From a bacterium (lineage in GTDB: Bacteria > UBA10199 > 2-02-FULL-50-16 > JAJFLM01): 64,000 bases of DNA. This document shows positions 19,083-56,936 of the stretch, piece by piece. The notes beneath the pieces are model-generated. The model saw only the letters and a list, made by a program, of their open reading frames with translations. It did no database searches and was not told the origin of the DNA. Where the stretch lies: contig CBDCFN010000016.1 in NCBI GenBank assembly GCA_965216315.1, positions 320,001 through 384,000 on the forward strand. The letters run 5' to 3'. Positions within the stretch are counted from its first letter, which is position 1. Each line of letters begins with the position of its first letter. Both the position numbers and the translations under genes were made by a program.

Positions 19083-21218
19083 ATGGCTGATTTGGCAGAA
19101 TCATTGAGCGGCATTAATAAGCTAATCGCTAAGTACAGTGATCTCGTGATTGCGGGACTCGTTGTGGCGGTCTTGGCGATTATTGTCATTCCGCTGCCAA
19201 CTTGGCTCATTGATATCATGATAACCATCAATATCACCGGTGGTGTCATCTTGATGTTGACGGCCCTTTACATCAATAACGCCCTTCAAATCGCGAGTTT
19301 TCCGACCATCTTGCTGATTTCCACCTTGTACCGGCTGTCGATCAATATCGCGACCACGCGTCAGATTCTGGGGACCGGTCAGGCCGGTGAAGTGATCTAT
19401 GCCTTTGGTAATTTCGTGGTCGGGGGCAACTACGTCGTCGGGGGAATACTCTTTGCGATCATTACCTTGGTCAACTTTCTCGTCATTGCCAAAGGTTCGG
19501 AGCGTGTGTCGGAAGTCGGGGCCCGCTTTACCTTGGACGCGATGCCCGGAAAGCAGATGTCTATCGATGCGGATTTGAGGGCGGGCATTATCGATCAGGA
19601 TGACGCGCAGGAACGACGCGCCACCTTGCAGCGTGAATCTCAGATGTACGGGGCTATGGACGGTGCGATGAAGTTCGTTAAAGGGGACGCGATCGCCGGT
19701 ATCGTCATTACCTTCATCAACGTTATCGGTGGCCTCTCCATCGGGGTATTGCAGCGCGGGCTCGAGTTAGGCAATGCGGCCAAACAATATACCTTGCTCT
19801 CGATTGGTGACGGGCTGGTGTCGCAGGTTCCGGCGCTGATTATTTCGGTGTCGGCCGGTATCGTCGTTACGCGTGTCGCCTCGGAAGGTGAGGACGCGAA
19901 TCTCGGCCGCGACATTATCAGCCAGATGACGGCCTACCCGAAGGCCCTGATGATTGGGGCGGGATTGCTCTTTGTGATGGGAATTATCCCGGGCTTGCCG
20001 ACCGTGCCCTTCCTGGTGCTGGCGGCGGCCTTAGGCGCCTTATCGTTCTTCTTGGTGCGCGGCAAGGTGAAGGCCGTGCAGGATGTCATGGAGACACCGA
20101 AGGAAGAGGTTGTTAAGAAAGCGGTCGCGAAACATGGGGATCAGCTCCCTTTTATTATGCCTGCGCCGATCTCGCTGGAAGTCGGTTCCGGTTTGATCCC
20201 TTTTGTCGACGATACGCAGGATGGAGGGCGTTTTATCAATGAATTGATTCCATTGCTGCGGCATGGCCTTTACTATGAATTAGGCGTCAATTTTCCGGGT
20301 ATTCAGGTGCGTGGCCAAAATATTGATATGGAGCCGAATGCCTACGTGATCAACATCAATGAGGTGCCGGTCGCGCATGGTAGCGCGGAAAGTGGTTGCA
20401 TCCTCGTCGGCGAACCGCTGGAACAGCTGTCGTTGTTTAATATTACGGGAAAAGAGACAATTCATCCCATTGATGGATCGGTGGTGACCTGGATTTCCGA
20501 ACAGTACCGTGAAGTCGCGCAGCAGGCCGGCTTTCGAATGTGGGACGTGGCGGAGTATCTCATCCTGCATCTCTCCCATTTACTCCGCAAACATGCCCAT
20601 GAATTCTTAGGCCTCCAGGAAGTGCAGACCTTGCTCAACGAGCTCGAAAAGACGCATCCGGCGCTGATCAAGGAGTTAGTGCCGAAGGTGATTACAATCT
20701 TGCAATTATCAGAAATATTTCAGCGTTTGGTCCAGGAAGACATTTCGATTCGCGATCTCAAAAATATCTTTTCGACGATGGCGCAGTGGGGAGAAATTGA
20801 GCGGGATTCGGTCGCGCTTACCGAACATATTCGCGCGGGTCTCAAGCGTTACGTGACTTATAAGTATGCCGGCCAGACCGCCACGCTGGCCGTGTATCTC
20901 TTGGATCCGAATATCGAGGAAATGATCAAGGCGGCGATACGCAAGACAGATAAAGGCAACTATCTCGCGCTCGAACCGGAGATCATGCAGGAACTCGTGG
21001 AAGCGGTCGGTAAAGAGATCGCCAGTCATCCCATGCCGCCGGCGGCCAAGCCTCCGGTTATCCTAACGATCTCGGAGGTGCGTCGGTACTTCCGTAAGAT
21101 TATCGAGCTCGAATTTCCGCAGCTGTCTGTCCTGTCTTACCAGGAATTATCAGAAAATCTGCGTATTCAGCCGATCGCGCGGATCACCTTGCCAAATCGC
21201 CAGATTCAAGCGGCGTGA
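19083..21218 (+). CDS. sctV: Type III secretion export gate SctV (LcrD/FlhA family)
   Basis: RVSEVGARFTLDAMPGKQMSIDADL, YGAMDGAMKFVKGDAIAG, IGDGLVSQVPAL, VLSYQEL. Confidence 0.95.
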   Translation: MADLAESLSGINKLIAKYSDLVIAGLVVAVLAIIVIPLPTWLIDIMITINITGGVILMLTALYINNALQIASFPTILLISTLYRLSINIATTRQILGTGQAGEVIYAFGNFVVGGNYVVGGILFAIITLVNFLVIAKGSERVSEVGARFTLDAMPGKQMSIDADLRAGIIDQDDAQERRATLQRESQMYGAMDGAMKFVKGDAIAGIVITFINVIGGLSIGVLQRGLELGNAAKQYTLLSIGDGLVSQVPALIISVSAGIVVTRVASEGEDANLGRDIISQMTAYPKALMIGAGLLFVMGIIPGLPTVPFLVLAAALGALSFFLVRGKVKAVQDVMETPKEEVVKKAVAKHGDQLPFIMPAPISLEVGSGLIPFVDDTQDGGRFINELIPLLRHGLYYELGVNFPGIQVRGQNIDMEPNAYVININEVPVAHGSAESGCILVGEPLEQLSLFNITGKETIHPIDGSVVTWISEQYREVAQQAGFRMWDVAEYLILHLSHLLRKHAHEFLGLQEVQTLLNELEKTHPALIKELVPKVITILQLSEIFQRLVQEDISIRDLKNIFSTMAQWGEIERDSVALTEHIRAGLKRYVTYKYAGQTATLAVYLLDPNIEEMIKAAIRKTDKGNYLALEPEIMQELVEAVGKEIASHPMPPAAKPPVILTISEVRRYFRKIIELEFPQLSVLSYQELSENLRIQPIARITLPNRQIQAA

Positions 21219-22277
21219 TTATAGCAATTTAAGTAGGAACCAAATCGACCCGACAAGAATAACCAAGCCAATAACGGCGGCGCCGATTTCGACCGGGCTG
21301 AAACGTTGCCAAAAGGGAGTGGAGGTCTCCGCCATCGGTGCCTCGGGGGGCATTTCAGTGGGCAGCTGGGGAGGCATTTCCGGAGGCATCTCGACCGGCG
21401 CTTCTTCCGGCGGTGGGGCCTCAGGTGCAGGTTTCTCGACAGCCTGTTCCGTGGTTCCGCTGCTATCGGCACGTCGTGCGACCCGGGCGATACTCTCATC
21501 GCCGCTTTCTCGGTTGATGACGGGTGGCGGGGCTTCCGCCCTGGGGGGTGGCGAGGCGGCCAGATAGTCCCAGCCATGTTCCGTGGGATTGCGGTAGAGG
21601 AGGGGCAGCGTCCCGAGTAAGATGCGATCCCCATCACTTAACACGACTTCATTGATTTTTTCGTCGTTGACGAAAACCCCATTTTTGCTGGCGAGATCAA
21701 TGATGCTGACCGTGTCCCATTTTTTGACGATACGGGCATGCTTGCGGGAGATTACCTCAGATTCAATTTGGAACTCACAGGCCGGATCGCGACCGACGAC
21801 GACTTCCTGGGTTTTGCCATCGAGGATGAAGCGTTTGCCTTCATGGCCGCCTCCGACAACTTCCAGTACGGGGGCGTTGTCCTTGTCGACGGCGCGGAGT
21901 AATTTTTTAATCATCTTGATTTCAAGGACGTCCGTGTCGGTAATTTCCCCGAAATCAGGGTTGGTGCTGCCGTTGATGATGAAAACAATTTCGAAATTTT
22001 CAATCTGAATCTTGTCACTGTTACGCAACAACATTTTTTCATGGGCTTGCAGTCGCTGACTATTGACGTAGGTTCCGTTGCCGCTATCAAGATCGACAAT
22101 AAAAAAACTCCCGTTTTCAAAACGGATCTCAGCATGATTGCGGGACACGCTTTTGGAAGGGAGGACGATGAAATTGGAGCGGTCACGGCCGATTACAATC
22201 GACTCCTGGTCCATGCGGTAAGAATTTTTTTGACCGCTATCGCGGTCCTTAACGGCAATGGAAGGGTGGATGTCCAT
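21219..22277 (-). CDS. Tandem FHA-FHA protein with Pro/Glu linker and C-terminal TM anchor
   Basis: Two GR...SRxHA...NG FHA motifs; C-terminal hydrophobic helix. Confidence 0.85.
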   Translation of the reverse strand: MDIHPSIAVKDRDSGQKNSYRMDQESIVIGRDRSNFIVLPSKSVSRNHAEIRFENGSFFIVDLDSGNGTYVNSQRLQAHEKMLLRNSDKIQIENFEIVFIINGSTNPDFGEITDTDVLEIKMIKKLLRAVDKDNAPVLEVVGGGHEGKRFILDGKTQEVVVGRDPACEFQIESEVISRKHARIVKKWDTVSIIDLASKNGVFVNDEKINEVVLSDGDRILLGTLPLLYRNPTEHGWDYLAASPPPRAEAPPPVINRESGDESIARVARRADSSGTTEQAVEKPAPEAPPPEEAPVEMPPEMPPQLPTEMPPEAPMAETSTPFWQRFSPVEIGAAVIGLVILVGSIWFLLKLL

Positions 22278-22280
22278 GGC

Positions 22281-23522
22281 TTAGCAGCCTCCATTGGAGT
22301 CAGCCATATTCTTGGCGATCTGGGCCTCACGTGGAAAACGCTGCGCACCGCTTTTGACGAAGGGGCATAGGTATTGATTGGCTTTTTTGCGATTGCCTAA
22401 TTTGTTGTGGAGACTGCCGAGATTGTAGAGGGCCTGCGGGTGCTGGGGTTCGAGATCGAGTGCGGCTTCCATCCCTTTAATTGCTTGTTGGGGGTTGTCT
22501 TCTTTCAGGTAGGTCATGGCCTTATTGAAGGCCGCATCCGCATACGTCGGTTTGAGTTTGAGCGCCTTGTCAAAGGCCTCGCGTGCTTTAGAGTATTTTT
22601 TGAGGGCGTAGTAGGCATAGCCGAGGTTGAAGAAACCACGCGGATTTTTCTTGTCCAGTTGGGTGGCATGTTTGAAGGCCCCGAGTGCATCCATCGGGCG
22701 CCGATTTTTCAGATAAGATTCGCCGAGTTTTAGGAAGGTTGAACTGTCGTTGGTGTTCATCTTGAGAGCCCGGACAAAACTGGCCCGGGCGCGTTCCGGA
22801 TCACCTTTTTGCAAGTAGACGTTTCCCATCTTGATCCAGGGCTCGGCTGCATTCGGCCGAGTCTCCGTCGCCAAACGGAAGCGTATGAGGGCCTCTTCCC
22901 AACGTCCGAGTTGGTGGTAGATGTCGCCGAGCCGTAAATGCCCGTGATAGAGTTTGGCATCAATAGCAGTAGCTTCTTTCATGTGCTTGGCGGCTTTTTG
23001 TAGATAAGAGGTTGGGTCTTCGGCCTTGTCGGCGCGGCGCAGATCGACAATGGCGAGGTTGTAGTGGGCATCGGCAAATTTCTCATCGATATCGATCGCT
23101 TTGTTGAGATAGCTTTCGGCGCGACCGTAATCGCCTTTGTCCATATAAGTCGTGCCAAGATGGTTGTAGGAAGTCGCCCATTTTTTATCGGCTTTGATCG
23201 CTTGTTCGAAATAAGCGATCGCCTGCTCGAGATTGCCCTGGTATTTGTACACGAGACCCAGATTGCTCAGTGCTTCCGGATAATTGGGGCTGGCCTCGAC
23301 CGCGGTCTTGAACTCAAGTTCCGCTTCTTTGAATTTGCGTTCCTCTAAATAACGCACACCACGGTTATTGTGGTAGATCGCAATCTTGGGGGGGATGTTT
23401 TCGCGCTGCGGTTCGGCGACGGCACCTCCGCCAAACGATCCAAAACAACCGTTTAGGTTAATTGTCCAGACAGTTATGATAATGCCGACCACGATAAACG
23501 AATGCTTCATAAGCCTCACCAT
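22281..23522 (-). CDS. TPR-repeat (lipo)protein
   Basis: Hydrophobic N-terminus with LNGC lipobox-like motif, then about 10 TPR repeats. Confidence 0.85.
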   Translation of the reverse strand: MVRLMKHSFIVVGIIITVWTINLNGCFGSFGGGAVAEPQRENIPPKIAIYHNNRGVRYLEERKFKEAELEFKTAVEASPNYPEALSNLGLVYKYQGNLEQAIAYFEQAIKADKKWATSYNHLGTTYMDKGDYGRAESYLNKAIDIDEKFADAHYNLAIVDLRRADKAEDPTSYLQKAAKHMKEATAIDAKLYHGHLRLGDIYHQLGRWEEALIRFRLATETRPNAAEPWIKMGNVYLQKGDPERARASFVRALKMNTNDSSTFLKLGESYLKNRRPMDALGAFKHATQLDKKNPRGFFNLGYAYYALKKYSKAREAFDKALKLKPTYADAAFNKAMTYLKEDNPQQAIKGMEAALDLEPQHPQALYNLGSLHNKLGNRKKANQYLCPFVKSGAQRFPREAQIAKNMADSNGGC

Positions 23523-23523: not shown

Positions 23524-24567
23524 TTACTGACAATTTGTAAGCGAAGGAAGCGACGATGTATCGCCCTTTCCCAGCTGTTGCATCAATTTAAGGGATGAAA
23601 CGTCTCCAGGCAAGGCTTTCAAAGCCTCTTCGAGCTGTTGGGCCGCAGCCGCGCTGTCGCCTTTTTCTAAGCGATCCGCGGCGGAGGTTTGGAGGGCATC
23701 CGCTTCGAGGTATTGCGTGACGCGCCGGCCCCAGTGTTTGCCGATAATCGGACAGAGCAGCAGCATTTTGGTCAACTCACGTTCGGCTTGTTGGAAATAA
23801 TTCTTATAGTCACGGCCTTCAACTTTTGCCATGAAACCGATTTCCGCGAGGGTTTGCGCCAGCCCGAGATAGGCGTAGCAATAGTTGAAATCATTTTTGA
23901 TCGCTTCCTCGTAAAAACCGCGCGCTTTGAGAATATGTGCTTCCGTTCCTTTAGCATCGGCAATTTGCCCCAGCACCCAGAAATTCATTGCCGTTAAGTT
24001 GCGAACCCGGTTTTCGGTTCCCATGAGCACTTTTTTGTCGACGCGGACTTTTTTGAATGCCTTGCTGGCGCGGCGCGCGAGGTGAATGAAGAGTTCGGAG
24101 AGTTTTTTAGGGCTGGGCCAAGCAATAACTTCTTCTTCAATCGGCACCTGTTTTTTTGCGCTGACATCGACGAAACGCGTGAAGATTTCCAGCTTGTCCG
24201 TTTTTTTGTGATACTGGCCGGCAATGACATAATCGGCGTTGGCCGTTTTACCGAGTTGGATCGCTTCATTTAGGTCAAAAGTTGTTTCCGCACTTCGTTT
24301 TTCGATGACCTTGGTGTTCTTCGTTGATTCGAGCGCCAAGAAAAGTCCTAGACGCAGTGCGTCTGAAAGCCATTGGAGGTTGGGATCGTTTGTTTCGTTG
24401 ATATACGGCAAGATTAATATACGTTTATCTTTAGGGGAGGCCGCAAAGACCTTGCGATTAGCCTCGAAGATGGCAGGCCAGTTGTAACACGTGCGTGCCG
24501 GGGCTTGGCGGGGGCTAAGCATCACAACGAGGGCAAAACACGCTATAATGAAAACGGTGGGTTTCAT
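23524..24567 (-). CDS. Exported protein with TolB-N/FlgO-like domain and TPR
   Basis: Signal peptide; ILILPYIN...WLSDAL...ANADYVIAGQY...RFVDV pattern; C-terminal TPR. Confidence 0.65.
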   Translation of the reverse strand: MKPTVFIIACFALVVMLSPRQAPARTCYNWPAIFEANRKVFAASPKDKRILILPYINETNDPNLQWLSDALRLGLFLALESTKNTKVIEKRSAETTFDLNEAIQLGKTANADYVIAGQYHKKTDKLEIFTRFVDVSAKKQVPIEEEVIAWPSPKKLSELFIHLARRASKAFKKVRVDKKVLMGTENRVRNLTAMNFWVLGQIADAKGTEAHILKARGFYEEAIKNDFNYCYAYLGLAQTLAEIGFMAKVEGRDYKNYFQQAERELTKMLLLCPIIGKHWGRRVTQYLEADALQTSAADRLEKGDSAAAAQQLEEALKALPGDVSSLKLMQQLGKGDTSSLPSLTNCQ

Positions 24568-24718
24568 GAATGTCGGCAATCTTACGCACATTCGACTGCG
24601 TTTGAAAACCGCTAAGTGTTTGAGAACGTTAAGGAACTGTGTTAAATGAAATAAGGTGAGGAATCTCACTCTACCCTAATAGCCCCTCATCTGAAATTTA
24701 AGGTTATTGAGAATATTT

Positions 24719-26869
24719 ATGGCGGATCCAAAGGACAAGACGACTGTAGAAGTAGAAGAGAATACCGAAATACGTGAAATCGGTGCCCTCGATGCCGCCG
24801 TCTTTCCTTGTTTGCGTGTCGTCGCCGGTCCGGGGCGCGGGGCTATTTATCCATTGCAGCCGGGGACCAACCTCGTGGGTCGTAGCGATATGGCCCACGT
24901 CATGCTCGATGACTCATCGATCTCACGTAATCATGCCGAGCTTGATGTGCGTGAAGAAGGGGCCCTCGTGCGTGACCTGGACAGTCGCAATGGAACACAG
25001 GTGCAGGGGGTTGCGATCACAAGTGACACCCCCATTATGCATGGGCAGCGCCTCAAGGTCGGGATCTATGATTTTCAATATTTGACGGAGGAGGCCGAGA
25101 TGCCGGCGGAAGATGAACCGCCGCAACCGCCACCGGAATCTGCTACGGAGGCGGCGGGTGCTGAAACCGTTGTTGAGGATGACGCTCCGACGGTTGATGA
25201 AGCGCCGCCCGAGGAAATGCCGCCGCAAGAAGAGGTGCCTGCGGAGGTGCCGCCCGAAATGCCGCCCGAAGTTCCTCCTGAGGCAACGGAACAACCGCCG
25301 GTGCCCGAAGCCGCGGCGGAGGCGCCGCCGAAGCCACCCGGCAAACTCGGTCCCTTGCTCGCGGTCTTTAAACGGATTCCGCGACGTTGGTATTTTATCA
25401 GTGTCGGTCTCTTGGTCGTCGCCGCGCTTGCTTATGGAGCGGTTTCCTACTTTACGGGTGGGCCGAGTGGCCCGCCGGAAATTCCCACCAAGCCGATCAC
25501 GACCCCGGACCCGCAAGCGATTCCGAGCGACGTTAAACTGGCGGTGCCGGAATACGTCCCGGTCTTTCTCGATTTTTCGGCGGCGCCGATTAGTGCGGAA
25601 GTCTTTTTTGGCGATGAGTCGGTGGGACGGACCCCGTTTCGCATGAGCGCCCATCTCAAGTACGGCAAGACGTATGAAGTCAAAGCCAAGTTCCGCCTCG
25701 AAGAGATCGACGAAGTCGTTGAACAAAAACAACGCATCGCTTTGGGTAAGGATCAGCAGGTGATTCCCGTCAATTTCGCCGGCGAGATTGGGCATATGAA
25801 AATCAAAGCCTTGCCGCGCGGGATAGACCTTTATTTAGAAGCCTTCTTTGCAAGCGATCCGCACCAGGCCAAGCCGATCAAATTTAACGAAGTGATCTTT
25901 GGTAAGCCGATTTACTTGCCCTTCGGTCGCTATGTGATGGAACTACGTCAAAGTCGTAAGTTGAGTGCGTCCAAGACCTTTATCAACGAAGTCGTGTATC
26001 GCCGTGAGTTTGTGATTGATAAGGATCAAGGCGTCTACGAAGTCGAGGTCAAAGCGGCGGAGCTCAGCGTGTTTCCGGCCAAGATCAATACGGTCCCGCC
26101 GGAGGCGACGTTAATCGTCGATGGCAAGGAGTTGGGGCCCACGCCCTTTGAGGGCGATCTGGCGGTCGGAAGTCATAAGCTGATGATTCGCAAGGAAGGG
26201 TATTTTCCGCACGAGCAGGAGATACGCGTTGATCTGAATACGCCCTTTGAGGCCGACATTGCCCTTAAGACATCGGAGGCGGGTCAGCGCATCAATGAGG
26301 CGCGGATCAAGATTCGACAACGTCGCTATAAAGAAGCGATTAATCTCTTGATCAACGCACTCAAAGAGAACCCGACGACTAAAGAGGTTGCGGAAACGCA
26401 TTACTTGATTGGGCAGGCGAATGTTTTCCTGAAAAACTATCCTGATGCGCGCGATTATTTCATTCAAGCGATGCGGCACCAGGAGTATCGCTATCCGGCG
26501 CGCCTCGGAATTGCTCAGCTTCATTACGCCCAGGGAGAACGGGTTAAGGCCTTGCAGATACTAACGGAGGTCCTGATCTCGGCGAAACGCAAGGATCTGC
26601 GTTCGGATGCGGGCAAATTGTTTCAGCAGATCTCTCCCTTCAAATCAGTTCTTTATGTCATGACCGAGCCGGAAGGGGCCGACGTGATCGTGAATGACAA
26701 AAAAGTTGCGGTCAAGACACCGCTCTTACTCCATGACTTGCTGGTGGGGGCCTATCGACTTTATTTTAGCCTGCCGGGTTATGAGCCCCACCATGTCAAA
26801 GTGGATATCGGGGTTTCCGAGTTCAAGCCGGTTACCGTGAAATTGCAGCCGATTAAACTGGCCGAGTAG
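24719..26869 (+). CDS. FHA-TM-PEGA-TPR membrane protein
   Basis: N-terminal FHA (VGRS...ISRNHA...SRNGT), Pro/Glu linker, one TM, PEGA repeats (NTVPPEATLIVDG...TP), TPR block. Confidence 0.85.
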   Translation: MADPKDKTTVEVEENTEIREIGALDAAVFPCLRVVAGPGRGAIYPLQPGTNLVGRSDMAHVMLDDSSISRNHAELDVREEGALVRDLDSRNGTQVQGVAITSDTPIMHGQRLKVGIYDFQYLTEEAEMPAEDEPPQPPPESATEAAGAETVVEDDAPTVDEAPPEEMPPQEEVPAEVPPEMPPEVPPEATEQPPVPEAAAEAPPKPPGKLGPLLAVFKRIPRRWYFISVGLLVVAALAYGAVSYFTGGPSGPPEIPTKPITTPDPQAIPSDVKLAVPEYVPVFLDFSAAPISAEVFFGDESVGRTPFRMSAHLKYGKTYEVKAKFRLEEIDEVVEQKQRIALGKDQQVIPVNFAGEIGHMKIKALPRGIDLYLEAFFASDPHQAKPIKFNEVIFGKPIYLPFGRYVMELRQSRKLSASKTFINEVVYRREFVIDKDQGVYEVEVKAAELSVFPAKINTVPPEATLIVDGKELGPTPFEGDLAVGSHKLMIRKEGYFPHEQEIRVDLNTPFEADIALKTSEAGQRINEARIKIRQRRYKEAINLLINALKENPTTKEVAETHYLIGQANVFLKNYPDARDYFIQAMRHQEYRYPARLGIAQLHYAQGERVKALQILTEVLISAKRKDLRSDAGKLFQQISPFKSVLYVMTEPEGADVIVNDKKVAVKTPLLLHDLLVGAYRLYFSLPGYEPHHVKVDIGVSEFKPVTVKLQPIKLAE

Positions 26870-26930: not shown

Positions 26931-27019
26931 GCGCAAGTGGCGTAAAATTGTTAAAATTTTCAAAACGTTATACGTGTTTGCCCGGATAACGGCTTGAATC
27001 AGTATTGAGGAGGTCCTTT

Positions 27020-28029: not shown

Positions 28030-28042
28030 GGAGGAAGCCTGT

Positions 28043-48232: not shown

Positions 48233-50038
48233 ATGGAACTTTATCTTTCACATAGCGACTTACCGATCGTCCTGACCAGGCCGGGGCTGTTTGAGGTCCC
48301 TGTCGCAACGGTGGGTTCAGTCCAAACGGGTGGGACGCAGCCGACGGCGCCTGATGCAACGGTTGCGCAAGGAACGACGATCCCGACGGACGGGACGAAT
48401 GCCGGTCAATTGACGGTTCGCCGCGACACGGCCTGGCCGGAAGTTGGCAACGGTTCGGGACAGCTAGGTGTTCGTTATCGAGATGCTAGTGGTGCATGGC
48501 ACGACCTGCCAGGCTCTGCCATCACGCGGGGGGGCACCGACAATAGAGACCTGACGATTACCTTTCCGGAAACAGCTCGTACCGGGAACGTCGCTTACGA
48601 AATTTTTACAGGTTCGGGTGGATCCCGCACGTATCTCGCCGATGGAACGGCTCCCTTTGCGACGCGGACGGCGACAGATGGCGACGGGACGGCGCGTCCC
48701 GGGCAGACTCAGAGCCCTCCGACGAATGAGGCGCTTGGCTCTGTCGGTGGCGGTACGGGTGAAGACACACGGACCGCACTCAATACCTATGCGACCAATT
48801 TTGAGACCACGACAGGTCCCAACGCGATGCGTTCAATTTTTAATCTCGGGAGCGGTGTCGAATATTGGTCGAGTGGGACGACTTTAAATCCCGCTAATTT
48901 TGATCAAGCCGTGACGGACATGACTGCAGGTCGGGATCGGGTTCAAGCCCTGCGTGATACCGCGGTGTCCGATTTGGGCACGGCGACGACGGAGCTACAG
49001 CGTTTGGAAAATCTCCCGGCTGGCGAAAGACCTGCTGACTATGATACCCAATTATCAGCTGCTCGGACACGGGTTGAGACTTTGCGCACGCAGGTCCGGC
49101 AATATAGCGATTCTTTTGACGCGCATGTGCGTGGTCTGGGCCGAGCCTCTTCTTTCCGTACTATTTATGACGAATTCAGAACCGCACGGACGGCATTGGA
49201 TGGTGGTGATCCGACGCAAATGAGAGATTTTAGACAGCGCTATGATCGTCGTACGGTTGCGTCGTTAGGCAATGGGACCGTGATGGCAGGCATTACAAGC
49301 GGTAATTACACTGGCGAGCAGATCAATGCGGCGCGTACCGAAGTCAATCGGCCGGCCGGCGGTGGCAACGGCGGTGCCGGGACCCAGAGCGCCGGTTTCA
49401 CTAATACCGTCCACGGTATTAACCAAGGCATTAACGCCGTTGCAGGGACTGTCCACAGTGCGGCGAACGTGACGGATGCCCTCGGGCGTCTCACCCGTTC
49501 GTCAGCCAGCATTCCGCCGAACAGCGGCTTTGGCTATGGCGGTTTCGGTGGCGGCTATGGTTTCGGGGGTGGCTTTGGTTTCGGCGGTTTCGGACCGATG
49601 GGAATGATGGGACCGGTGGGTCAGCAAGACCAGCGTGAAGAATCTCGCAAGATCACGATGTTGTTGCAGATGTTGATGCATGCCATCCAGGCGGGGAATA
49701 CGGATGCGATCGGTACGGCCCTGACCTTCATCGCGATGCGCGGTAAAAAGACCTTGTTACAGGCGGCGGCACGCACCGTGCGGGCGATGGAATCTTTTGA
49801 GCGGCAGCAGCAGACGATCAATAATCAGATGGCCAACCTCAATGCCGAGGGCAATCGGAATTATCAGTCGCAGATGATGACCCTGACCAACGACATGAAC
49901 GTCTATTCTTCGAATCGTCAGGCCATCGTCAACTTCCTGCGGGACGTCAAAGGGATGGTCGATGAGCTCGATAATATGGATAAGAGCTGGCGCGATGTGG
50001 CGATCAGACAGCAGACGTCGTTGACTCGATTTGCCTAA
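48233..50038 (+). CDS. Putative T3SS substrate, paralogue D (Thr/Gly-rich, GGFG repeats, shared C-terminal module)
   Basis: YSSNRQAIVNFLRDVK motif; GFGYGGFGGGYGFGGGFGFGGFG tract. Confidence 0.75.
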   Translation: MELYLSHSDLPIVLTRPGLFEVPVATVGSVQTGGTQPTAPDATVAQGTTIPTDGTNAGQLTVRRDTAWPEVGNGSGQLGVRYRDASGAWHDLPGSAITRGGTDNRDLTITFPETARTGNVAYEIFTGSGGSRTYLADGTAPFATRTATDGDGTARPGQTQSPPTNEALGSVGGGTGEDTRTALNTYATNFETTTGPNAMRSIFNLGSGVEYWSSGTTLNPANFDQAVTDMTAGRDRVQALRDTAVSDLGTATTELQRLENLPAGERPADYDTQLSAARTRVETLRTQVRQYSDSFDAHVRGLGRASSFRTIYDEFRTARTALDGGDPTQMRDFRQRYDRRTVASLGNGTVMAGITSGNYTGEQINAARTEVNRPAGGGNGGAGTQSAGFTNTVHGINQGINAVAGTVHSAANVTDALGRLTRSSASIPPNSGFGYGGFGGGYGFGGGFGFGGFGPMGMMGPVGQQDQREESRKITMLLQMLMHAIQAGNTDAIGTALTFIAMRGKKTLLQAAARTVRAMESFERQQQTINNQMANLNAEGNRNYQSQMMTLTNDMNVYSSNRQAIVNFLRDVKGMVDELDNMDKSWRDVAIRQQTSLTRFA

Positions 50039-50096: not shown

Positions 50097-50165
50097 GGCA
50101 AAAAACCCAAGGATTATTAGAACTTGTACGGCTCAGACGAAAATGTTATTTTATATCCAGAGGTT

Positions 50166-50810
50166 ATGGATTCGATGGCAAATCCGAAGGATACCGGTGT
50201 ACCCGAGAATCCCGCACCTGAAGGGGCAGAGGCCGGCCCGGAGGAGGTCTCCTTTGATGAGCTCGCCAATCAACTCGAGGCGGAGCTCAAAAAGGTGCCC
50301 CCCCAAAAGCTGGCAGAGGCCCAGAAGCAGGTAGCGGATTTTCTGGGGGGCGACCTGAAATGGGCCGATCTCGCCGATTGGACCCCCGAGAAGCTGCATG
50401 AGACCGCCAAGGAGGGCTACGCCCAATACGAGGCCGCCCAGTACGACCAGGCGGAGATCATTTTTAAGGGGCTGACCGTGCTGGATCCGGACAATTTCTA
50501 CTATCACCAGATGCTCGGGGCGTGTTTTCAGCAACAGAAGAAATTCGCCGAATCCATCGTCGAGTATTCAATCGCGGTCGATCTCAAGCCCGACGATATC
50601 ACCTCTTTTACCAACCGGGGCGAGGTCTACTATGAGCTCAAGCTCTGGGATCTGGCCGAACGGGATTTTAATGAGGCGATCCGCCTCGATACGACCGGAG
50701 GGGACCGCTGGGCCAATCGCTCCCGGCTGTTGTTGAAAAAGCTGGCGGGACTGCGTAGTACGCAACCCGTTGGGGCCTCTGAGCCGAAAATAGAAGCAGG
50801 AGATAAGTAA
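50166..50810 (+). CDS. SycD/LcrH-like TPR chaperone
   Basis: GYAQYEAAQYDQAEIIFKGLTVLDPDNFYYHQMLGACFQQQKKFAESIVEY. Confidence 0.8.
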   Translation: MDSMANPKDTGVPENPAPEGAEAGPEEVSFDELANQLEAELKKVPPQKLAEAQKQVADFLGGDLKWADLADWTPEKLHETAKEGYAQYEAAQYDQAEIIFKGLTVLDPDNFYYHQMLGACFQQQKKFAESIVEYSIAVDLKPDDITSFTNRGEVYYELKLWDLAERDFNEAIRLDTTGGDRWANRSRLLLKKLAGLRSTQPVGASEPKIEAGDK

Positions 50811-50813: not shown

Positions 50814-51710
50814 ATGGCCATTGATATGCCAGGCATGCAGACCGGCGCTTCCGATGTGAGGACGCAGACGCCCCCTGTCGTGACGGAGGGGCTCCTTAGC
50901 GGTCAGGTCGCCCAGGAGATCCGTCAGCTGCTCAAGACGGACGTGACGGCCACCGATATGCTGGCCTATCTCTCGCAGCAAGCGACGCGCCTGGCCGATC
51001 TCCAGTCACCGCCTTCGATCAAGGCGATGTCCGCGGACATCCCGCCGCCGCCGGAAGATAGCCCGCTTTGGAATGAATCGGATCCGTCGATGCAGGTCTC
51101 CGATGTGGAGCTGCAGGCCCTTGATGAGTTTACCCAACAGATGGCGGGCATTGCCTCGGAAGGGGGCGATGCGAATGACGCCTGGCTCAACGGGGCGGAT
51201 AGCATCCTCGATAAACTCAAAGAACAATACGGGGATCCGCAGATGGCCATCGGTGACGGCGAGATGACCGGTGGGATCTGGGACTGGATGATGACCGGTG
51301 AAGTCAGTCGTGAGGCCGCTGAGGTCGATGACAGATGGCGTACCCTGATTCAGTCGTTGCTGGCGGATCCCAAGGCCAGTGCGGTTGATGTGCTGATGGC
51401 GATGGGCCAATATTTAACGGAGAAAAACGGGAAGGGACTGACCGAGGCCTTCAAGCTGTTTCACAATAAAGAAGTCGCTTATCAAGAGAATATGGCGGAG
51501 CTGGGCCTGGGCGAAAAGGCCCTCAATCCGACGGAGATGATGCAGGCGCAGGAAGAGATGCGCCAGTTTGGGATGGACTCCCAGATGGGGATGCAGGTGA
51601 TCCAGCAGTTCCGTCAGGACATCGACCGGACGCAGAACTACGTGAAGTCTTCCGCGACGGCGGTTCATCAGACGCTCCGAGCCATGATCCAAAACTACGC
51701 GTTACGATAA
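50814..51710 (+). CDS. Putative T3SS substrate, paralogue E (acidic N-half, divergent shared C-terminal module)
   Basis: Lies between two SycD-like genes; D..QN..KS C-terminal pattern. Confidence 0.65.
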   Translation: MAIDMPGMQTGASDVRTQTPPVVTEGLLSGQVAQEIRQLLKTDVTATDMLAYLSQQATRLADLQSPPSIKAMSADIPPPPEDSPLWNESDPSMQVSDVELQALDEFTQQMAGIASEGGDANDAWLNGADSILDKLKEQYGDPQMAIGDGEMTGGIWDWMMTGEVSREAAEVDDRWRTLIQSLLADPKASAVDVLMAMGQYLTEKNGKGLTEAFKLFHNKEVAYQENMAELGLGEKALNPTEMMQAQEEMRQFGMDSQMGMQVIQQFRQDIDRTQNYVKSSATAVHQTLRAMIQNYALR

Positions 51711-51761: not shown

Positions 51762-52364
51762 ATGGATGAGACGTATACGAGGGGTCAAAAGACGACAACG
51801 CGGGAACAGGACCCTAATCCTGACCGGGTAAAACATCTCGCCGAACTCCTTCATCGATTTGCCACCAATAAAATCAGTCTGGCCGATATCGCGCGCCTGC
51901 CGCGCAAAGAATTGCGACGCATGACCGAGATCGGTCATACCAAGCTCAAATACGGTCGTTACAAAGAGGCCTTAGAGATCTTTTCGATGCTCGCCAAGGT
52001 CGACCACAAAAACTATTATTATCGTTCCGCTCTCGGTGGTGTGTATCAGAAGATGAAAAAATGGATCGAGTCCCTGGCGAGTTATACGATTGCCCTCAAA
52101 CTCAATAAGAATGATACCGCCAGCCTCGTCAATCGCGGGGAGATTTTTTTGCGTCATGACAAGTTCAAGCGGGCCGCGGAAGATTTTCGTCGCGCCATCC
52201 TGACGGACAAGGCGGGAAAAAACCTATGGGCGAATCGGGCCCGCTCTTTGGTGATTGCGCTCAAGCGCAGCGTGGAAGCCAAGAAAAATGTGAAGAAAGC
52301 CACCCGGCCCGCCTTGCCGGCATCACGTAAGCCGGTGCCGCGGAGTGCGGGAAGAAGAAGGTAA
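51762..52364 (+). CDS. Second SycD/LcrH-like TPR chaperone (basic)
   Basis: GRYKEALEIFSMLAKVDHKNYYYRSALGGVYQ...NRGE...WANRAR; paralogue of 50166. Confidence 0.8.
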   Translation: MDETYTRGQKTTTREQDPNPDRVKHLAELLHRFATNKISLADIARLPRKELRRMTEIGHTKLKYGRYKEALEIFSMLAKVDHKNYYYRSALGGVYQKMKKWIESLASYTIALKLNKNDTASLVNRGEIFLRHDKFKRAAEDFRRAILTDKAGKNLWANRARSLVIALKRSVEAKKNVKKATRPALPASRKPVPRSAGRRR

Positions 52365-52421: not shown

Positions 52422-53819
52422 TTAATCGTTGTCGTTGAGGATCCCATATTTCTTGAGCAGATTGCGGATGTGCTTCCGGTCGATTCCAGCCTCGCGGGCG
52501 GTCTTGGAGATGTTGTAATTGTTGCGCCGGAGCAGGGCGGCCAGATAGTCCCGTTCAAAGGATTCGACGATCTTTTGCTTGGCCTCTTTGAAGGGCAGGC
52601 CGAGATCGACCTCCGGGAGTTTTTCAGTGACCTCGTCTTCTTCACGTTCCAACTCTTGAAAGACATAGGCTAAGTCCTGACCTTTGACGGAATCCCCGTT
52701 GACTAAGGGGACGACGCGCGAGAGGACGTTGACGAGTTCCCGGACGTTTCCCGGCCATTGATAACGAGTGAGCATCTTGAGGGCGTCATCTTCCACGCGC
52801 GTGACATGAAGGCTGCCATCGGGATTGCGATTGAAATCCCCCTCGGACAAGAAACGTTCGACCAGCATTTCGATGTCATCAGGGCGTTCGCGCAAGGGCG
52901 GAATGAAAATTTTGACGACGGAGAGCCGATAATAGAGATCCTCGCGAAAATTGCTATCAGCGACTTCTTTGCGCAGATTGCGATTGGTCGCGCAGAGCAC
53001 GCGGACATCAATGCTCACCGTATCGTTAGAACCGACCTTTTTGATTTGGCGTTGCTCTAAGGCGCGCAGCAGTTTCGGTTGCAGGTCCATGGAGAGTTCG
53101 CCGATTTCATCGAGAAAGATCGTCCCTCCAGTGGCTTCCTCAAAGGCCCCTTTGCGGGTCGACACGGCCCCGGTAAATGAACCTTTCATATGACCAAAGA
53201 GTTCCGATTCGATCAAATTTTCGGCCACGGCCGAACAATCGAAGACGACAAAGGGTTTATCTTTGCGGGGACTGTTGTCATGGATGGAGCGGGCAACGAC
53301 TTCTTTACCGACACCGGTTTCCCCTTCGATAATAACCGTCGCATTGGTAGGCGAGATCCGACTGAGGAGGCCGAAGATCTGGCGCATGCGCCGTGACCGG
53401 CCGATTAAACGCCCGAATTCGGTTTTTTCCGAGGGCTCCACCTGAACCTTTTCATCGAAAGCAATAAATTCAATGCGGGAGTTGCCGATGCGAATAATAT
53501 CGCCGGGGGCGAGATAGGCTTCTTTGACCCGCGTTTCGTTAATAAACGTGCCGTTAGTGCTCTCGAGATCTCTTAATAGAAAACTGTCTTCTTCCGGTAC
53601 GATTTCAAAGTGAGTCCGCGAGACCGCTCGGTCCTCGATGGCGAGTCCATTGTCCTCTTTTTTGCCGATCGTGATACGGTTGTCTTTAAGGTCCATCTTG
53701 CGGCCTTTGCTGGTCCCTTCAACGACTACGAGCTGGCATTTACGGAGACTGACGACATCCTTGTTTTCGTCGAGTCGTAAGAGTTGGGTATCACTCTCTA
53801 AGATTTCATTTTGCGCCAT
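52422..53819 (-). CDS. FHA-domain sigma54-dependent enhancer-binding protein
   Basis: N-terminal FHA (VSRTHF...STNGT), [36 protein letters not shown], Fis-type HTH. Confidence 0.95.
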
Positions 53820-53838: not shown

Positions 53839-56496
53839 TTAATTTTTTTGTAGCCGAACGTTATAACGTTTGTTTTTTTCGCGGCTCATATCGACGGATG
53901 TGGACCAAGGACGGAACCCGTTCATCTCCACGCGCAAGCTGTGTGAACGGTTGCGTGGGACCTTGCGAATCGTTACGGGAGTTCGGGCCCCGATGCGATT
54001 GCCATCAAAAATAACATCGGCTCGTGGGGGGATGGTTTCGACCTTGATCTCTCCAAACATGCCTTCTAATTTGATCGTACCTAAACTTTTCTTTTTGCCC
54101 CCCTGGAGGCTTACGCTTGATGAATGCTGCATAAATCCATCCTTACGCAGCATTACCGAGGCGCTTCCCGGACGGAGTCCGCTCACGGTGATCGGTGTCT
54201 TTCCTTTATACTCGGAGTTGACATAGACCTCGGCGCCGGAAGGGCTTGATCTAATCGACAGACTGGCCGGACGTCCTGAAGCGACGGGTTTGGGTGCCGG
54301 CGGCGGCGTATAGCGTGGCTCGGGTTTGGGCTCCGGCGGCGGAGTATATCTTGGTTCAGGCTTGGGTTTGGGCGTGGGCTTGGCCTCGCGAATCGGCTTT
54401 TCGACCGGCTTCGGTTTGGGTTTGGGCTCAGGTATTGCTTTGCCCTTGTCTAATGAGGCGATGAGCTTGTCGCCGGATTCTTGTTCGACCTTGACGCTCT
54501 TGGTGAAGACCTCATAGCCGCCTTTTTCCAGCTTGATCGTGTAAAACTTATCCAGCTCAAGGTTGTCGAGTTGGGTCGGGGTCACGCGCCCCGTATCCTT
54601 GCCATTTAAGAAGACCTTGGCCGCCCCCGGCTTGGAACGAACCACTAAAGAACCGAGCTTGGGAGGCGGAGGGGGCTCGGGTTTCTCTTCGAGCTTCGGA
54701 AGCTCAGGAAGTTTAGTCAAGGTAGCGCGGATATTGACCGGATTGAAATTGGCGATAGGAACCGTGCTGGCCCAATCACCGTAACCTTCCTTCTTTAAGT
54801 GAATCGCATAATCTTTTTTGATCTCAAGCTCGCCGATATCGGTTGGCGTGACCTTGCCCGTCTCTTTGCCGTTAAGCAGGATCGCGGCGCCGGGCGGATC
54901 CGATGAGATCTTGAGCATTCCTTCCGCGAGGGCCTGAAGGCTGACATGAACCTTGACGGGTTCTTCCGTCACGAGCGCGACGGTTTTTTCGTAGGGCTTA
55001 TAGTGTTCTCTTTCAATTGAGACTTTGTAGTCATCGCCAAGTGATAAGCGGCTTAAGGTCGCCGGTGTTGTTTTGCCGATGTTTTTTCCATTGAGCAGTA
55101 TCGTTGAATTAGAGGGTTCCGAGCTGACAATGATTGAGCCGTAATCAGCGAGGGGCGGCTTGGGTTCGGGCGGTTCGACGGGCTTTACGGGTTTGTCCGG
55201 GACTGTCGGTCCGACGAGTTCTTCCCAGAGCCCGCTGACTTTGTCGCCGATACCGAATTGGGACCAACTCAGATACCCGGCCGCGCCCAGTGCGAGGAAG
55301 ACGGCCAATATCATCCAGGGTCGCCTTCTTTTCGCCTGCTTGCGGACGATGGTGGGTTCGGGGACCGGAATGGCGCCGGCTTGGGTGGATTCATCGGTGA
55401 CGGATGATTCTTCATCAATTCCGATGTCAGTGCCCGTTCCGGCGTCTTTAATGCCGGCTTCCGTTCCCTGGCCTTCGTCCCCAACGAGGCTTTCACCGGT
55501 GCTGGCCTTGATCAGCAGTGAACGTGTTTTGTCGTCGACATGAGGTCCGCTCTCCTCGGTTGCTTTCATTTCTTTGTCAAAATAGTTTCGGACAAGAGAG
55601 GCGAGGTTGCGCGGTGAAAAATCGATGTACGAGGAATAAAGATATTTAGTGAGTTCGAGATGAAGGTCACCCGCCGTGGCGTAACGGTCCTTGGCATTGA
55701 AGGAAAGGGCCTTGGCGAGTATGGCTTTCAGCGGCCCGGGGATATCATCCGGCAGGTCCATTGTGTTGACGCGGGTCGTGCGGATTTTATTCAATACTTC
55801 AAATTGAGTCTCTCCGGTGTAGAATTTTTCGCCGGTCAACATTTCATAGAGAACGAGGCCTGCCGAGTAGATATCAGTCCGCCCATCGAGCGGTTTGCCG
55901 AGGGCTTGTTCGGGTGACATGTAAGCGATTTTGCCCTTCAGGACGCCGGCCATCGTGTGAGAGACGTTGAGTGCCGCTTTGGCGATTCCGAAGTCGACAA
56001 TCTTGACCTCGCCTTCATAGGAAATGAGGATATTTTGCGGGTTGATATCGCGGTGGACAATATTAAGCTGCTGGCCGTCGGGGCTCGATTTGCGATGGGC
56101 ATAATCAAGGCCCTTACACATTTCACTGACAGCATACACGGCAAGGTCTTCCGGCATCTTGCCCTCGTCGGAGGTCACCCGCCGGATAAGCTCGCGCAGA
56201 TTGGTGCCATGAATGAATTCCATAGAGATGTAGTAGTCATCACCGACTTTACCGAGGTCATAGACTTGAACGATATTGGCGTGCGAAAGCAGAACCGTTA
56301 GCTTGGCTTCATCAACCAGCATCGTGATGAAGTCTTTGTCGGCAGCGCAATGAGGGAGTATTCGTTTGATGGCGAGTAGCTTTTCAAAGCCGTCGACACC
56401 ATAAGTTTTGGCCTTGTAGATCTCGGCCATGCCGCCCACGGCAAGTTTGTCGATCAGCAGATAGCGCCCAAACTGTTTCGGTTCAAAATCGCTCAT
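53839..56496 (-). CDS. Membrane Ser/Thr protein kinase with extracytoplasmic PEGA repeats
   Basis: GGMAEIY, AIK, HRDINPQN, DFG, YMSPEQ; one TM; about 5 PEGA repeats with Pro-rich linkers. Confidence 0.95.
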   Translation of the reverse strand: MSDFEPKQFGRYLLIDKLAVGGMAEIYKAKTYGVDGFEKLLAIKRILPHCAADKDFITMLVDEAKLTVLLSHANIVQVYDLGKVGDDYYISMEFIHGTNLRELIRRVTSDEGKMPEDLAVYAVSEMCKGLDYAHRKSSPDGQQLNIVHRDINPQNILISYEGEVKIVDFGIAKAALNVSHTMAGVLKGKIAYMSPEQALGKPLDGRTDIYSAGLVLYEMLTGEKFYTGETQFEVLNKIRTTRVNTMDLPDDIPGPLKAILAKALSFNAKDRYATAGDLHLELTKYLYSSYIDFSPRNLASLVRNYFDKEMKATEESGPHVDDKTRSLLIKASTGESLVGDEGQGTEAGIKDAGTGTDIGIDEESSVTDESTQAGAIPVPEPTIVRKQAKRRRPWMILAVFLALGAAGYLSWSQFGIGDKVSGLWEELVGPTVPDKPVKPVEPPEPKPPLADYGSIIVSSEPSNSTILLNGKNIGKTTPATLSRLSLGDDYKVSIEREHYKPYEKTVALVTEEPVKVHVSLQALAEGMLKISSDPPGAAILLNGKETGKVTPTDIGELEIKKDYAIHLKKEGYGDWASTVPIANFNPVNIRATLTKLPELPKLEEKPEPPPPPKLGSLVVRSKPGAAKVFLNGKDTGRVTPTQLDNLELDKFYTIKLEKGGYEVFTKSVKVEQESGDKLIASLDKGKAIPEPKPKPKPVEKPIREAKPTPKPKPEPRYTPPPEPKPEPRYTPPPAPKPVASGRPASLSIRSSPSGAEVYVNSEYKGKTPITVSGLRPGSASVMLRKDGFMQHSSSVSLQGGKKKSLGTIKLEGMFGEIKVETIPPRADVIFDGNRIGARTPVTIRKVPRNRSHSLRVEMNGFRPWSTSVDMSREKNKRYNVRLQKN

Positions 56497-56936
56497 AAAA
56501 AGGCCCTAATAACGAATGAAAGCGCGATGACGATGCCGACAATTGCAAAAAAATAGAGGCCAATCGTGCCCCATTGATAGTGGCGATTGTCGTCAAGAAA
56601 GCCCACGGCTCTTAAAAAAGTTATGGTCGTTGAAGTCGTGACTTCTTCGATAGTCGTTTCCTCTGCGGTCACTTCAATGGGCTCATCTGTCTTGGCCGAG
56701 ACGCTCTCTTCCTCATGGGTTGCTGCCGGACGTTTATCCCAAAGTGACGGATGGTGCTGGCCTCCGGCGTCTTTGTCTCCGGTCCATTTTTTAAAGTCGA
56801 GTTTGGGGGCAAACTCATCGTGCTCTTCTTGTTCTTCTTGTTTTTGTTTTCCCCCGCCACCATGCTCGTCTGAAGTGTCCTCCTTGCGAAGGACTTTCAT
56901 GGCGTCTGATTCGACCTTTGGGATACGATCGACCAT
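56493..56936 (-). CDS. Small acidic/Thr-rich protein with C-terminal TM
   Basis: ATG 56936 after GGAG; overlaps the kinase start. Confidence 0.65.
   Translation of the reverse strand: MVDRIPKVESDAMKVLRKEDTSDEHGGGGKQKQEEQEEHDEFAPKLDFKKWTGDKDAGGQHHPSLWDKRPAATHEEESVSAKTDEPIEVTAEETTIEEVTTSTTITFLRAVGFLDDNRHYQWGTIGLYFFAIVGIVIALSFVIRAFL

Follow-up and report, generated by a model that had tools for sequence, protein, structure and literature searches.

A secretin-less non-flagellar type III secretion locus with FliG-, FliM- and FliN-like genes in a phylum of small-genome uncultured bacteria

Secretin-less systems and the placement of the locus

Type III secretion systems (T3SSs) without a secretin have been proposed as intermediates between the flagellum and the injectisome, and the only ones studied so far are those of myxobacteria, which are described as having neither a needle nor FliG. 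In the sections of the published accounts cited here, the non-flagellar T3SS of Myxococcus xanthus (Myxo NF-T3SS, or T3SS*; PMC3459982, PMC10433427) has no secretin and comprises SctD, SctJ, SctI, an SctQ-type protein, SctRSTUV, SctN, SctL, and several LcrH-like chaperones. These systems stand outside the secretin-bearing injectisomes (Abby and Rocha 2012, PMC3459982), are vertically conserved in their lineage, and contain FliO, as already published for the non-flagellar T3SS of Myxococcota (PMC12248157). Here we describe a 38-kb locus (positions 19083 to 56936) within a 64,000-nucleotide stretch of DNA, hereafter the window (contig CBDCFN010000016.1, positions 320,001 to 384,000; G000:C16:320001-384000), from a bacterium of the GTDB phylum UBA10199 whose assembly comprises 2.96 Mb in 16 contigs and is 98.3% complete. 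The locus is real and intact and encodes a non-flagellar T3SS without a secretin, and we consider it probable that it represents a machine of the Myxo/T3SS* grade with a flagellar-type sorting platform, in a candidate phylum whose members are uncultured and have small genomes.

Compared with the myxobacterial systems by published description only, the locus shares the features listed above and differs in encoding its own FliA-like sigma factor, in its detached sctU, and in its occurrence in an uncultured phylum with small genomes. Unlike the myxobacterial systems, which are described without SctF and for which FliG is listed as absent in the account cited (PMC3459982), the present locus carries a conserved SctF-like candidate, a FliG-like gene detectable with Pfam, and a separate FliM-like gene. 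Its nearest counterpart in kind is the myxobacterial T3SS*, and its nearest counterparts in sequence are systems of Acidobacteriota. The literature searched, which included neither subscription papers nor the supplements to Abby and Rocha, yielded no account of such systems for this phylum or for Acidobacteriota.

Genes were called from a list of open reading frames (ORFs) together with Pfam and NCBIfam scans of the window proteins, and transmembrane (TM) and hydrophobic segments were computed. Every frame of the locus is open, and the block lies mostly on the forward strand (to which coordinates refer unless marked minus) between housekeeping genes, with secA and argJ upstream and proC and a YggS-type gene downstream. 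Both databases confirmed the mixture of injectisome and flagellar genes that had been noticed before any search was run. The export gate SctV (19083..21218; FHIPEP, 787.6 bits in Pfam) passed the NCBIfam model TIGR01399 hrcV (806 bits, cut-off 692), failed the FlhA model (698, cut-off 772), and is encoded by the sole FHIPEP gene of the genome. SctR (38343..39233) scored 210.6 bits with the Pfam FliP family and 205 with yscR versus 179 bits with fliP in NCBIfam, while SctS (39409..39675; SctS model 75 versus fliQ 89) and SctT (39690..40514; SctT model 135 versus 134 for the flagellar model) were recognized in both databases. The sctR-sctS spacer (39234-39408) is 175 bp long and G+C-rich, which is unusually long within this tightly packed operon. 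The ATPase complex consists of the SctL/FliH stator (32867..33610; Pfam, NCBIfam), the SctN ATPase (33614..34939), which passed both FliI_clade2 (638, cut-off 630) and SctN (620, cut-off 605), and the SctO/FliJ stalk (35032..35535; YscO-like 81.6 bits, FliJ 40.4 bits in Pfam). It is followed by an SctP/FliK-type length-control or switch protein (35645..36565; Flg_hook, the FliK C-terminal family, 39.1 bits, cut-off 29.8; HpaP 21.9 bits). In NCBIfam, the scores of the core proteins thus fall between flagellar and injectisome models. The sequence-only reading had reported that sctU is missing, which holds for the window but not for the genome, where a single, solitary SctU/FlhB gene (SctU model 357, FlhB model 329 in NCBIfam) sits 420 kb off the locus (G000:C16:805026-806048; L001:1480-2565), flanked by a Ser/Thr kinase gene and ybaK/rpsB. 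Counting this distant SctU, the export apparatus SctR, S, T, U, and V is complete.

The window was also found to lack flagellin, hook, rod, FliF, MotAB, and secretin genes, as had been read from its sequence. In the whole genome no match was obtained for flagellin, for the rod/hook C-terminal domain, for the MotB plug, or for a second YscJ/FliF gene, so that the locus is not one part of a flagellum whose other genes lie at a distance.

Conservation was followed in 93 species genomes of the same GTDB phylum, which represent one class and 24 families and range from 1.1 to 4.6 Mb. The FliG-like gene was present in 92 of these genomes and in all 63 of high quality. A machine related to the myxobacterial one, with sequence-detectable FliG-like and FliM-like proteins and a needle-family candidate, is accordingly spread across an uncultured phylum of 1-5 Mb genomes; phylum-wide retention of a T3SS is otherwise best known from Chlamydiae. 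Its near-universal retention suggests a cell-contact lifestyle, whether predatory, epibiotic, or host-associated. Flagellin was found in 12 of the 93 genomes (11 above cut-off), and all five flagellated members examined encode a separate FlhA and FliI beside their T3SS copies. These flagellar FliI proteins are 49-52% identical to the window SctN, versus 71-76% for the T3SS copies. In two flagellated relatives, a third FHIPEP gene accompanies the flagellar and T3SS copies (L096 in G087:C12 and L097 in G064:C16).

A contig scan with SctN, from which the best 80 loci were listed, placed 22 loci (L006-L027) closest to the window, with 71-75% SctN identity. They come from metagenome-assembled genomes labelled Deltaproteobacteria, Myxococcales, Pseudomonadota, or simply 'bacterium', and keep the window gene order as far as each stretch reaches. 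Nineteen of them include the FliG-like gene, and the other three stretches start at sctL. The next tier (61-67% SctN identity) is made up of Acidobacteriota, including the cultured Edaphobacter aggregans and E. modestus, and Chlamydiota; no Myxococcus locus was among the best 80 SctN matches. The copy in one flagellated relative (G055, C1:1812809-1841969) has at least four broken T3SS genes: SctV is divided between two frames, and a stop or split affects each of SctN and the FliG-like and SctF-like genes; these breaks may reflect pseudogenisation or assembly error. A second member of the same genus (G056) has a stop in its FliG-like gene.

A maximum-likelihood tree of SctN and SctV (25 taxa, 1133 columns, no Myxococcus sequence included) split the flagellar sequences (Bacillus, Granulicella, and five in-phylum flagella) from all non-flagellar ones with 100/100 support. 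Aeromonas Asc, Bradyrhizobium Rhc, Shigella Mxi-Spa, and Ralstonia Hrp formed one clade (100/100), to which the Acidobacteriota systems together with this phylum were sister (100/97). This phylum was monophyletic (100/100) and nested among Acidobacteriota lineages. The non-flagellar character proposed in the sequence-only reading is thereby borne out, in that SctN and SctV stand on the non-flagellar side, outside the canonical injectisomes, as the Myxococcales systems do in the part of the 2012 study cited above. Neither protein was found inside a flagellar clade, and no flagellin, rod/hook domain, MotB plug, or FliF was found elsewhere in the genome to accompany them. In a quick tree of SctN only, the non-flagellar grouping (98) recurred; with moderate supports, so did the grouping of Acidobacteriota with this phylum (81), and Chlamydiota fell with the canonical injectisomes (Shimodaira-Hasegawa-like approximate likelihood ratio test, 80). 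A further SctN tree, rooted on the genome's own F1-ATPase subunits, was discarded as a long-branch artefact.

Given this separation from the phylum's own flagellar FlhA and FliI, together with the conservation across 24 families, the proposal that the locus is a decaying, functionless remnant of a flagellar gene cluster is already contradicted and scarcely credible. What recommends it is the flagellar-type order and parts (FliG-like, FliM-like, FliN-like, FliO, and FliA-like), the score of SctN above the FliI_clade2 cut-off, and the broken copies in G055; yet all window frames are open, SctJ is present instead of FliF, and there are no axial flagellar genes. Vertical descent in the phylum is favoured by the presence of the system throughout it and by the monophyly of the clade, and Pfam gave no integrase or transposase family for the ORFs scanned within the locus and next to it, in line with the vertical inheritance and lack of mobile-element marks suggested earlier. 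An ancient transfer between this phylum and Acidobacteriota is possible, since the phylum nests among Acidobacteriota systems.

The sigma-factor-headed loci of these Acidobacteriota (E. aggregans DSM 19364, L051; E. modestus, L065), sister or paraphyletic to the present clade in the SctN and SctV tree, have in common with it the order sigma factor, SctJ, SctL/N/O/P, FliO, SctRST, TPR chaperones, and SctV, as well as Ser/Thr kinase neighbours and the absence of a secretin within the flanks fetched. Unlike in the window, an FHA-FliN fusion replaces the FliM-like and FliN-like pair (L051:12396-13847, L031:8215-9702), which would join the sorting platform directly to the recognition of phosphothreonine, and sctU lies within the locus, directly after sctT. 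With the window protein as query, the FliG-like gene was detected in four Acidobacteriota loci only, and the coiled-coil substrate domain described below was not found in the stretches fetched. Experimental work could begin with these sister systems, which occur in cultured Edaphobacter strains. The chlamydial T3SS resembles the present system in being kept by essentially a whole small-genome phylum, in its SctN (61-64% identical), and in the weak CdsG match of the small TPR chaperone; it differs in that Chlamydiota SctN groups with the canonical injectisomes and not with this clade, a position seen in the quick tree only.

Rings, sorting platform, and axial candidates

The FliG-like protein (31908..32918), which would act as adaptor in the SctK position, matched FliG_C with 29.3 bits (cut-off 23.3 in Pfam), and its gene lies between the SctI-like gene and sctL, which is the fliG slot in flagellar operons and the sctK slot in injectisome loci. 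All of the best 13 Foldseek matches of an AlphaFold2 model (23-sequence alignment; predicted local distance difference test, pLDDT, 85) were FliG chains. In VIA-align, the model superimposed on the FliG middle domain with Z 10-11 and a root-mean-square deviation of 1.7-2.1 A over 72-75 residues, and on PscK (SctK) with Z 7.8 over 175/187 residues; the fold matches span residues 70-320 only. The protein has no MotAB partner in the genome, as the search for the MotB plug gave no match, and the search for its family retrieved no named Myxococcus protein. According to the parts of the two papers cited here, the FliG and SctK families have already been grouped structurally (2025 preprint, 10.1101/2025.03.14.643159) and the SctQ N-terminus has been linked to the FliM middle domain (2022, PMC9907115). 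What is unusual here is that such FliG- and SctQ-type links to the flagellar C ring can be seen in the sequence itself.

Downstream of sctP, a FliM-like sorting-platform protein (36583..37539) matched FliM with 36.2 bits (cut-off 27) and weakly FliMN_C in Pfam, and scored 46 bits with TIGR01397, below cut-off. The separate FliN-like, or SctQ C-terminal (SpoA), protein (37545..38039; FliMN_C, 68.9 bits in Pfam) scored 83 bits with the SctQ model and 64 bits with the FliN model of NCBIfam, each below cut-off, and is followed by FliO (38036..38365; PF04347, 31.7 bits, cut-off 22; TM segment 20-38). The inner-membrane ring would be built from the lipoprotein SctJ (28456..29463), which matched YscJ_FliF with 82 bits and TIGR02544 SctJ with 115 versus 38 bits for FliF; it is the product of the genome's single YscJ/FliF gene and takes FliF's place. 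SctJ has a C-terminal TM segment (257-275) followed by a cytoplasmic tail of ~47 amino acids. Within this tail (residues 289-335), which may constitute a docking peptide, two short motifs are kept throughout the phylum: E-G preceded by a hydrophobic residue, and x-L-G-x-G. A candidate for the bitopic SctD-like ring (24707..26869; Yop-YscD_cpl 62.5 bits, FHA, PEGA, and TPR in Pfam) combines a cytoplasmic FHA domain, a single TM segment (228-246), and a periplasmic part with two PEGA domains and TPR, and scored 39 bits with TIGR02500 SctD, below the cut-off of 86.

In gene order the locus follows the fla/che operon of Bacillus (L099), fliE-fliF-fliG-fliH-fliI-fliJ-fliK...fliM-fliN(Y)-fliO(Z)-fliP-fliQ-fliR, with the SctI-like gene in the fliE position. 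The FliG fold, the separate FliM and FliN genes, and a sigma-28-type factor are likewise shared with flagella. Unlike a flagellum, however, it has SctJ, encoded upstream, instead of FliF, and no rod, hook, flagellin, or MotB; its SctN and SctV lie outside the flagellar clade, and its rod-like protein matches SctI and not FliE. The likenesses to a canonical injectisome (Aeromonas Asc/Ysc, L100) are the SctJ lipoprotein, an FHA-bearing SctD-type protein, SctI, SctL/N/O/P, SctRSTUV, SycD-type chaperones, and an SctF-type candidate with a TPR chaperone encoded downstream. The present locus departs from that plan in lacking the SctC secretin, a pilotin, the gatekeeper SctW, a recognizable tip protein, and hydrophobic translocators, in having a FliG-like protein instead of a short SctK and separate FliM-like and FliN-like proteins instead of one SctQ, and in the presence of FliO. 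The origin of SctK and SctQ from the C ring, and the role of a T3SS without an outer-membrane pore, thus become testable.

Both axial candidates named in the sequence-only reading, an SctI-like and an SctF-like protein, were supported by profile-profile comparison with hhalign, although neither window protein has a Pfam match of its own. The SctI-like inner-rod protein (31407..31895; 162 amino acids) belongs to a family that, as a 17-sequence profile, matched SctI end to end at the C-terminus (probability 87.4%, E 3.7e-6) and gave no match to FliE; weak PF17001 matches occurred in 5/14 members, and the Acidobacteriota counterpart matched PF17001 with E 1.9e-5. The SctF-like protein (27385..27936; 183 amino acids) represents a family of 11 aligned sequences that matched positions 31-82 of the 82 of SctF (probability 90.8%, E 1.2e-6) in a single profile-profile match to a reference profile of three sequences, with no match to SctI. 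The gene is present in 78 of the 93 phylum genomes, with all 24 families represented, and its products are 160-206 amino acids long, with a long, Gly/Ala-rich N-terminal part. On these grounds, the product of 27385-27936 is a needle-family candidate and not a proven needle.

Just upstream of the SctF-like gene, a small helical protein (27005..27358) is conserved in the loci of nine relatives. From its position we infer a role like that of a needle co-chaperone; its family showed no likeness to YscE, for which the reference profile held only two sequences. Downstream, a small TPR chaperone (28016..28459; TPR families in Pfam) resembles SycD, SctY, and CdsG, with LcrH_SycD at 40.9, SctY at 33.3, and CdsG at 32.5 bits, each below its NCBIfam cut-off. 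The resulting order of small protein, SctF-like protein, and TPR chaperone recalls ascE-ascF-ascG of Aeromonas. Beyond sctJ lie a conserved 151-amino-acid protein (29541..29996; hydrophobic segment 36-54), with homologues in the loci of ten relatives, and a 119-amino-acid ORF (30010..30369, from the ORF list) that has no family and no match in relatives at E 1e-5. The 29541-29996 family was considered as a further SctF candidate and rejected, as it showed no likeness in profile comparison. Against sequences in the PDB, the three small-protein families gave chance-level matches only.

These axial candidates bear on whether the system is a true contact-dependent injectisome, in which the SctF-like protein would form a needle that reaches the exterior via a secretin provided in trans (GspD of the type II secretion system, T2SS, or a small ORF) or via an unrecognized pore, and the coiled-coil proteins of the locus would be tip proteins or translocators handled by SycD-like chaperones. 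No secretin was found by Pfam in the window or, within the flanks fetched, in the 22 related loci. The genome has two secretin matches. The first, full-length at 988 amino acids, is GspD inside a complete T2SS operon (GspC-D-E-F-G...J-K). The second is a 253-amino-acid ORF between gltX and ilvC (L004:1411-2172; G000:C16, ~16.6-17.4 kb) with marginal scores (Secretin_N 28.7, Secretin 27.5 bits). To our knowledge, this ORF is far shorter than any functional secretin. We regard such an injectisome as unlikely: it would account for the SctF-like and SctI-like candidates, the SctP/FliK-type ruler, the two SycD/LcrH-like chaperones that flank candidate substrates, the ascE-ascF-ascG-like order, and the second, short secretin-like ORF, but it is opposed by the lack of a secretin in the locus and in the stretches fetched from its relatives, by the place of the full-length secretin in a T2SS operon, by the absence of any substrate with translocator-typical hydrophobic segments, by the length of the SctF-like proteins (160-206 and not about 80 amino acids), and by the non-significant comparison of the coiled-coil domain with SctF (probability 2.6%). 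A secretin-less machine of the Myxo/T3SS* grade remains our preferred interpretation.

Candidate substrates and predicted regulation

The genes downstream of sctT encode a set of candidate substrates, none with a TM segment or signal peptide. The first product (40590..42743; 717 amino acids) is a candidate secreted metalloprotease with an HExxH motif and no Pfam family; its sole homologue, 32% identical, retains HExxH and the downstream QER..Y..E Glu-rich stretch. It is followed by four proteins of 491 (42938..44413), 460 (44685..46067), 624 as listed (46258..48132; a 611-amino-acid form is also on record), and 601 amino acids (48233..50038), which share a C-terminal coiled-coil domain of ~135 amino acids at 27-35% identity, as detected by BLAST and a small hidden Markov model. 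The 460-amino-acid protein is 61% identical to the 491-amino-acid protein over 375 amino acids. The 717-amino-acid protein and a 298-amino-acid protein (50814..51710) were unrelated to these four in BLAST. The latter, a candidate substrate by position with no Pfam family, is encoded between two SycD/LcrH-like TPR chaperones (50124..50810, TIGR02552 75.6 bits, below the cut-off of 104.8, and TPR families; 51762..52364, 69.3 bits, below cut-off). Because of their position, chaperone neighbours, promoters, and lack of signal peptides, the four coiled-coil proteins are plausible T3SS substrates.

The sequence-only reading took the paralogues to be five and proposed that they polymerise into a surface filament on a non-rotary, flagellum-like machine. 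Four tandem paralogues without signal peptides and with long C-terminal helices would suit such a role, as would one alignment with SctF in matching register, which was non-significant; in every further comparison the proposal found no backing. Only the C-terminal domain is common to the four proteins, the N-terminal parts being unrelated in three of them, and no conserved N-terminal helix of the axial-protein kind was seen. In an AlphaFold2 model of the 460-amino-acid protein (pLDDT 75, predicted template modelling score 0.41), the C-terminal part forms three long helices (308-459, pLDDT 90 or more), and the model gave no Foldseek match at E 0.001 or better. Its best VIA match (Z 10.6) is within helical-bundle noise, among matches that also comprise the N-terminal coiled coil of IpaB (Z 9.5), FliJ, and YscO, so that fold searches returned generic coiled coils only. 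Comparisons of the shared domain with SctF, with the SctF-like family, and with the 298-amino-acid protein were not significant. The domain has no further copies in the genome and is missing from 76 of the 93 genomes that were surveyed, which keep the machine. A filament built from these proteins is accordingly very unlikely. A profile of the domain matched 87 representatives among 1.84 billion proteins, mostly at the extreme C-terminus after variable N-terminal parts, and none of the 30 representatives scanned had a Pfam match above cut-off (two weak matches were sub-threshold). In 17 of the 93 genomes the domain occurs as 2-3 tandem copies. Their distance to the FliG-like gene is 12-21 kb in G052, G055, G058, G062, and G063, as in the window, and ~37 kb in G064.

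A regulatory cascade, which had also been proposed before any search, is plausible from predicted promoters, with two tiers. The FliA/WhiG-like sigma factor (30511..31410; Sigma70_r2 and r4 in Pfam), the genome's only FliA-like one, has FliA/WhiG as its best-scoring family (TIGR02479, 133 bits, cut-off 189.6). A predicted sigma-54 promoter lies at 30531..30546, and because the ATG at 30583 is downstream of this site, translation probably starts there. Two more predicted sigma-54 promoters precede the 460-amino-acid gene (44601..44616) and coincide with the start of the 624-amino-acid ORF (46259-46274), which would therefore begin later than listed. The pattern TGGCAY-N5-YTGCW accounts for these three sites, all on the forward strand within the locus, versus 0.21 expected in the window, and three were reached by none of 100 shuffles. 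Predicted sigma-28-like promoters were located before the 151-amino-acid gene (29487..29515; GCAACT-N-GGCGATAA), the 717-amino-acid gene (40553..40579), the 491-amino-acid gene (42888..42914), and the 601-amino-acid gene (48180..48208). In a pattern search, GCAACT-N13-15-GSCGATAA occurred four times in the window versus 0 expected, and a looser sigma-28-like pattern occurred 27 times on contig C16 versus 0-4 in five shuffles. The sequences used for comparison, including a GCCGATAA-type -10 element, are what we take to be the sigma-54 and sigma-28 consensus. The genome encodes rpoN. After the last chaperone gene comes a minus-strand gene for a sigma-54 enhancer-binding protein whose N-terminus carries an FHA domain (52422..53819, minus; Sigma54_activat 230.9 bits, FHA, HTH_8 in Pfam), found at the same place in the loci of seven relatives, and beside it a gene for a Ser/Thr protein kinase that has five PEGA domains (53839..56496, minus; Pkinase 132.5 bits, PEGA 233.7 bits). 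FHA domains on three proteins and this neighbouring kinase suggest control by threonine phosphorylation.

Taken together, the parts would operate as follows in a secretin-less machine of this grade. Under the rings, the FliG-like adaptor, the FliM-like protein, and the separate FliN-like protein would form a sorting platform of flagellar layout, and FliO would aid SctRST assembly. The SctI-like rod protein and the SctF-like needle-family protein would be exported first, with SctP/FliK as the switch. Later exports would be locus-encoded proteins without signal peptides, namely the HExxH protein and, in this sub-lineage, the four variable-headed coiled-coil proteins, delivered to the machine by the three TPR chaperones. 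In the first regulatory tier, the FHA-bearing sigma-54 activator would switch on two substrate genes together with the FliA-like sigma factor. In the second, this sigma factor would read the GCAACT-N13-15-GCCGATAA promoters of the other substrate genes, and the predicted sigma-28-like regulon thereby becomes a list of candidate substrates. A more far-reaching interpretation, possible but decidedly tentative, is that this clade and the Acidobacteriota systems represent the pre-secretin stage of the transition from flagellum to injectisome, in which FliG would not yet have become SctK, FliM and FliN would not yet have been fused to SctQ, and FliO and a sigma-28-type factor would have been kept, with a needle-family subunit and SctJ already present. 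The whole phylum would then depend on the machine for a contact-dependent life (predatory, epibiotic, or host-associated), with the coiled-coil proteins as exchangeable tips or effectors.

Several observations weigh against the interpretation of the locus as such a functional machine. The system may be dispensable in some lineages, because at least four of its genes are broken in G055. No outer-membrane conduit for substrates was found, the genome's two secretin matches being the T2SS GspD and the short ORF. Needle models of Pfam were hit by 0/11 members of the SctF-like family, whose assignment is the single hhalign match described above. The sigma factor scored below the FliA/WhiG cut-off, and its putative promoters are pattern matches only. 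The coiled-coil domain is confined to 17 of the 93 genomes and its folds match generic coiled coils, so we infer the substrate status of its bearers from context. Finally, the G+C content of the locus (0.555, versus 0.511 for the genome) is about 2 standard deviations over the mean of 38-kb windows on contig C16 (mean 0.509, standard deviation 0.021, maximum 0.572), which is high yet within range.

Between sctV and the SctD-like gene, three minus-strand genes encode a protein combining two FHA domains with a hydrophobic anchor at its C-terminus (21219..22277; FHA x2, Yop-YscD_cpl; hydrophobic segment 325-343), a 413-amino-acid TPR-repeat protein (22281..23522; many TPR families) that adjoins the locus in three relatives, and a 381-amino-acid protein (23524..24669; N-terminal hydrophobic segment 31-49) with no family in Pfam or NCBIfam and weak homologues in L011 and L027. 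Next to the kinase gene, a tail-anchored protein of 189 amino acids (56493..57062, minus; hydrophobic segment 162-180) likewise has no family in Pfam or NCBIfam. The G+C content falls to 0.38-0.47 at the window ends (1-4000, 60000-64000), compared with 0.51-0.60 over the locus. Outside the window, six tandem minus-strand genes (L119, G000:C16:2163562-2178756) encode proteins of 370-888 amino acids with no Pfam family, the four of 608-888 amino acids having Cys-rich N-termini. Each of these genes follows a sigma-28-like pattern, these six sites being among the 27 matches on contig C16, and the genes may be further members of the predicted regulon, possibly effectors.

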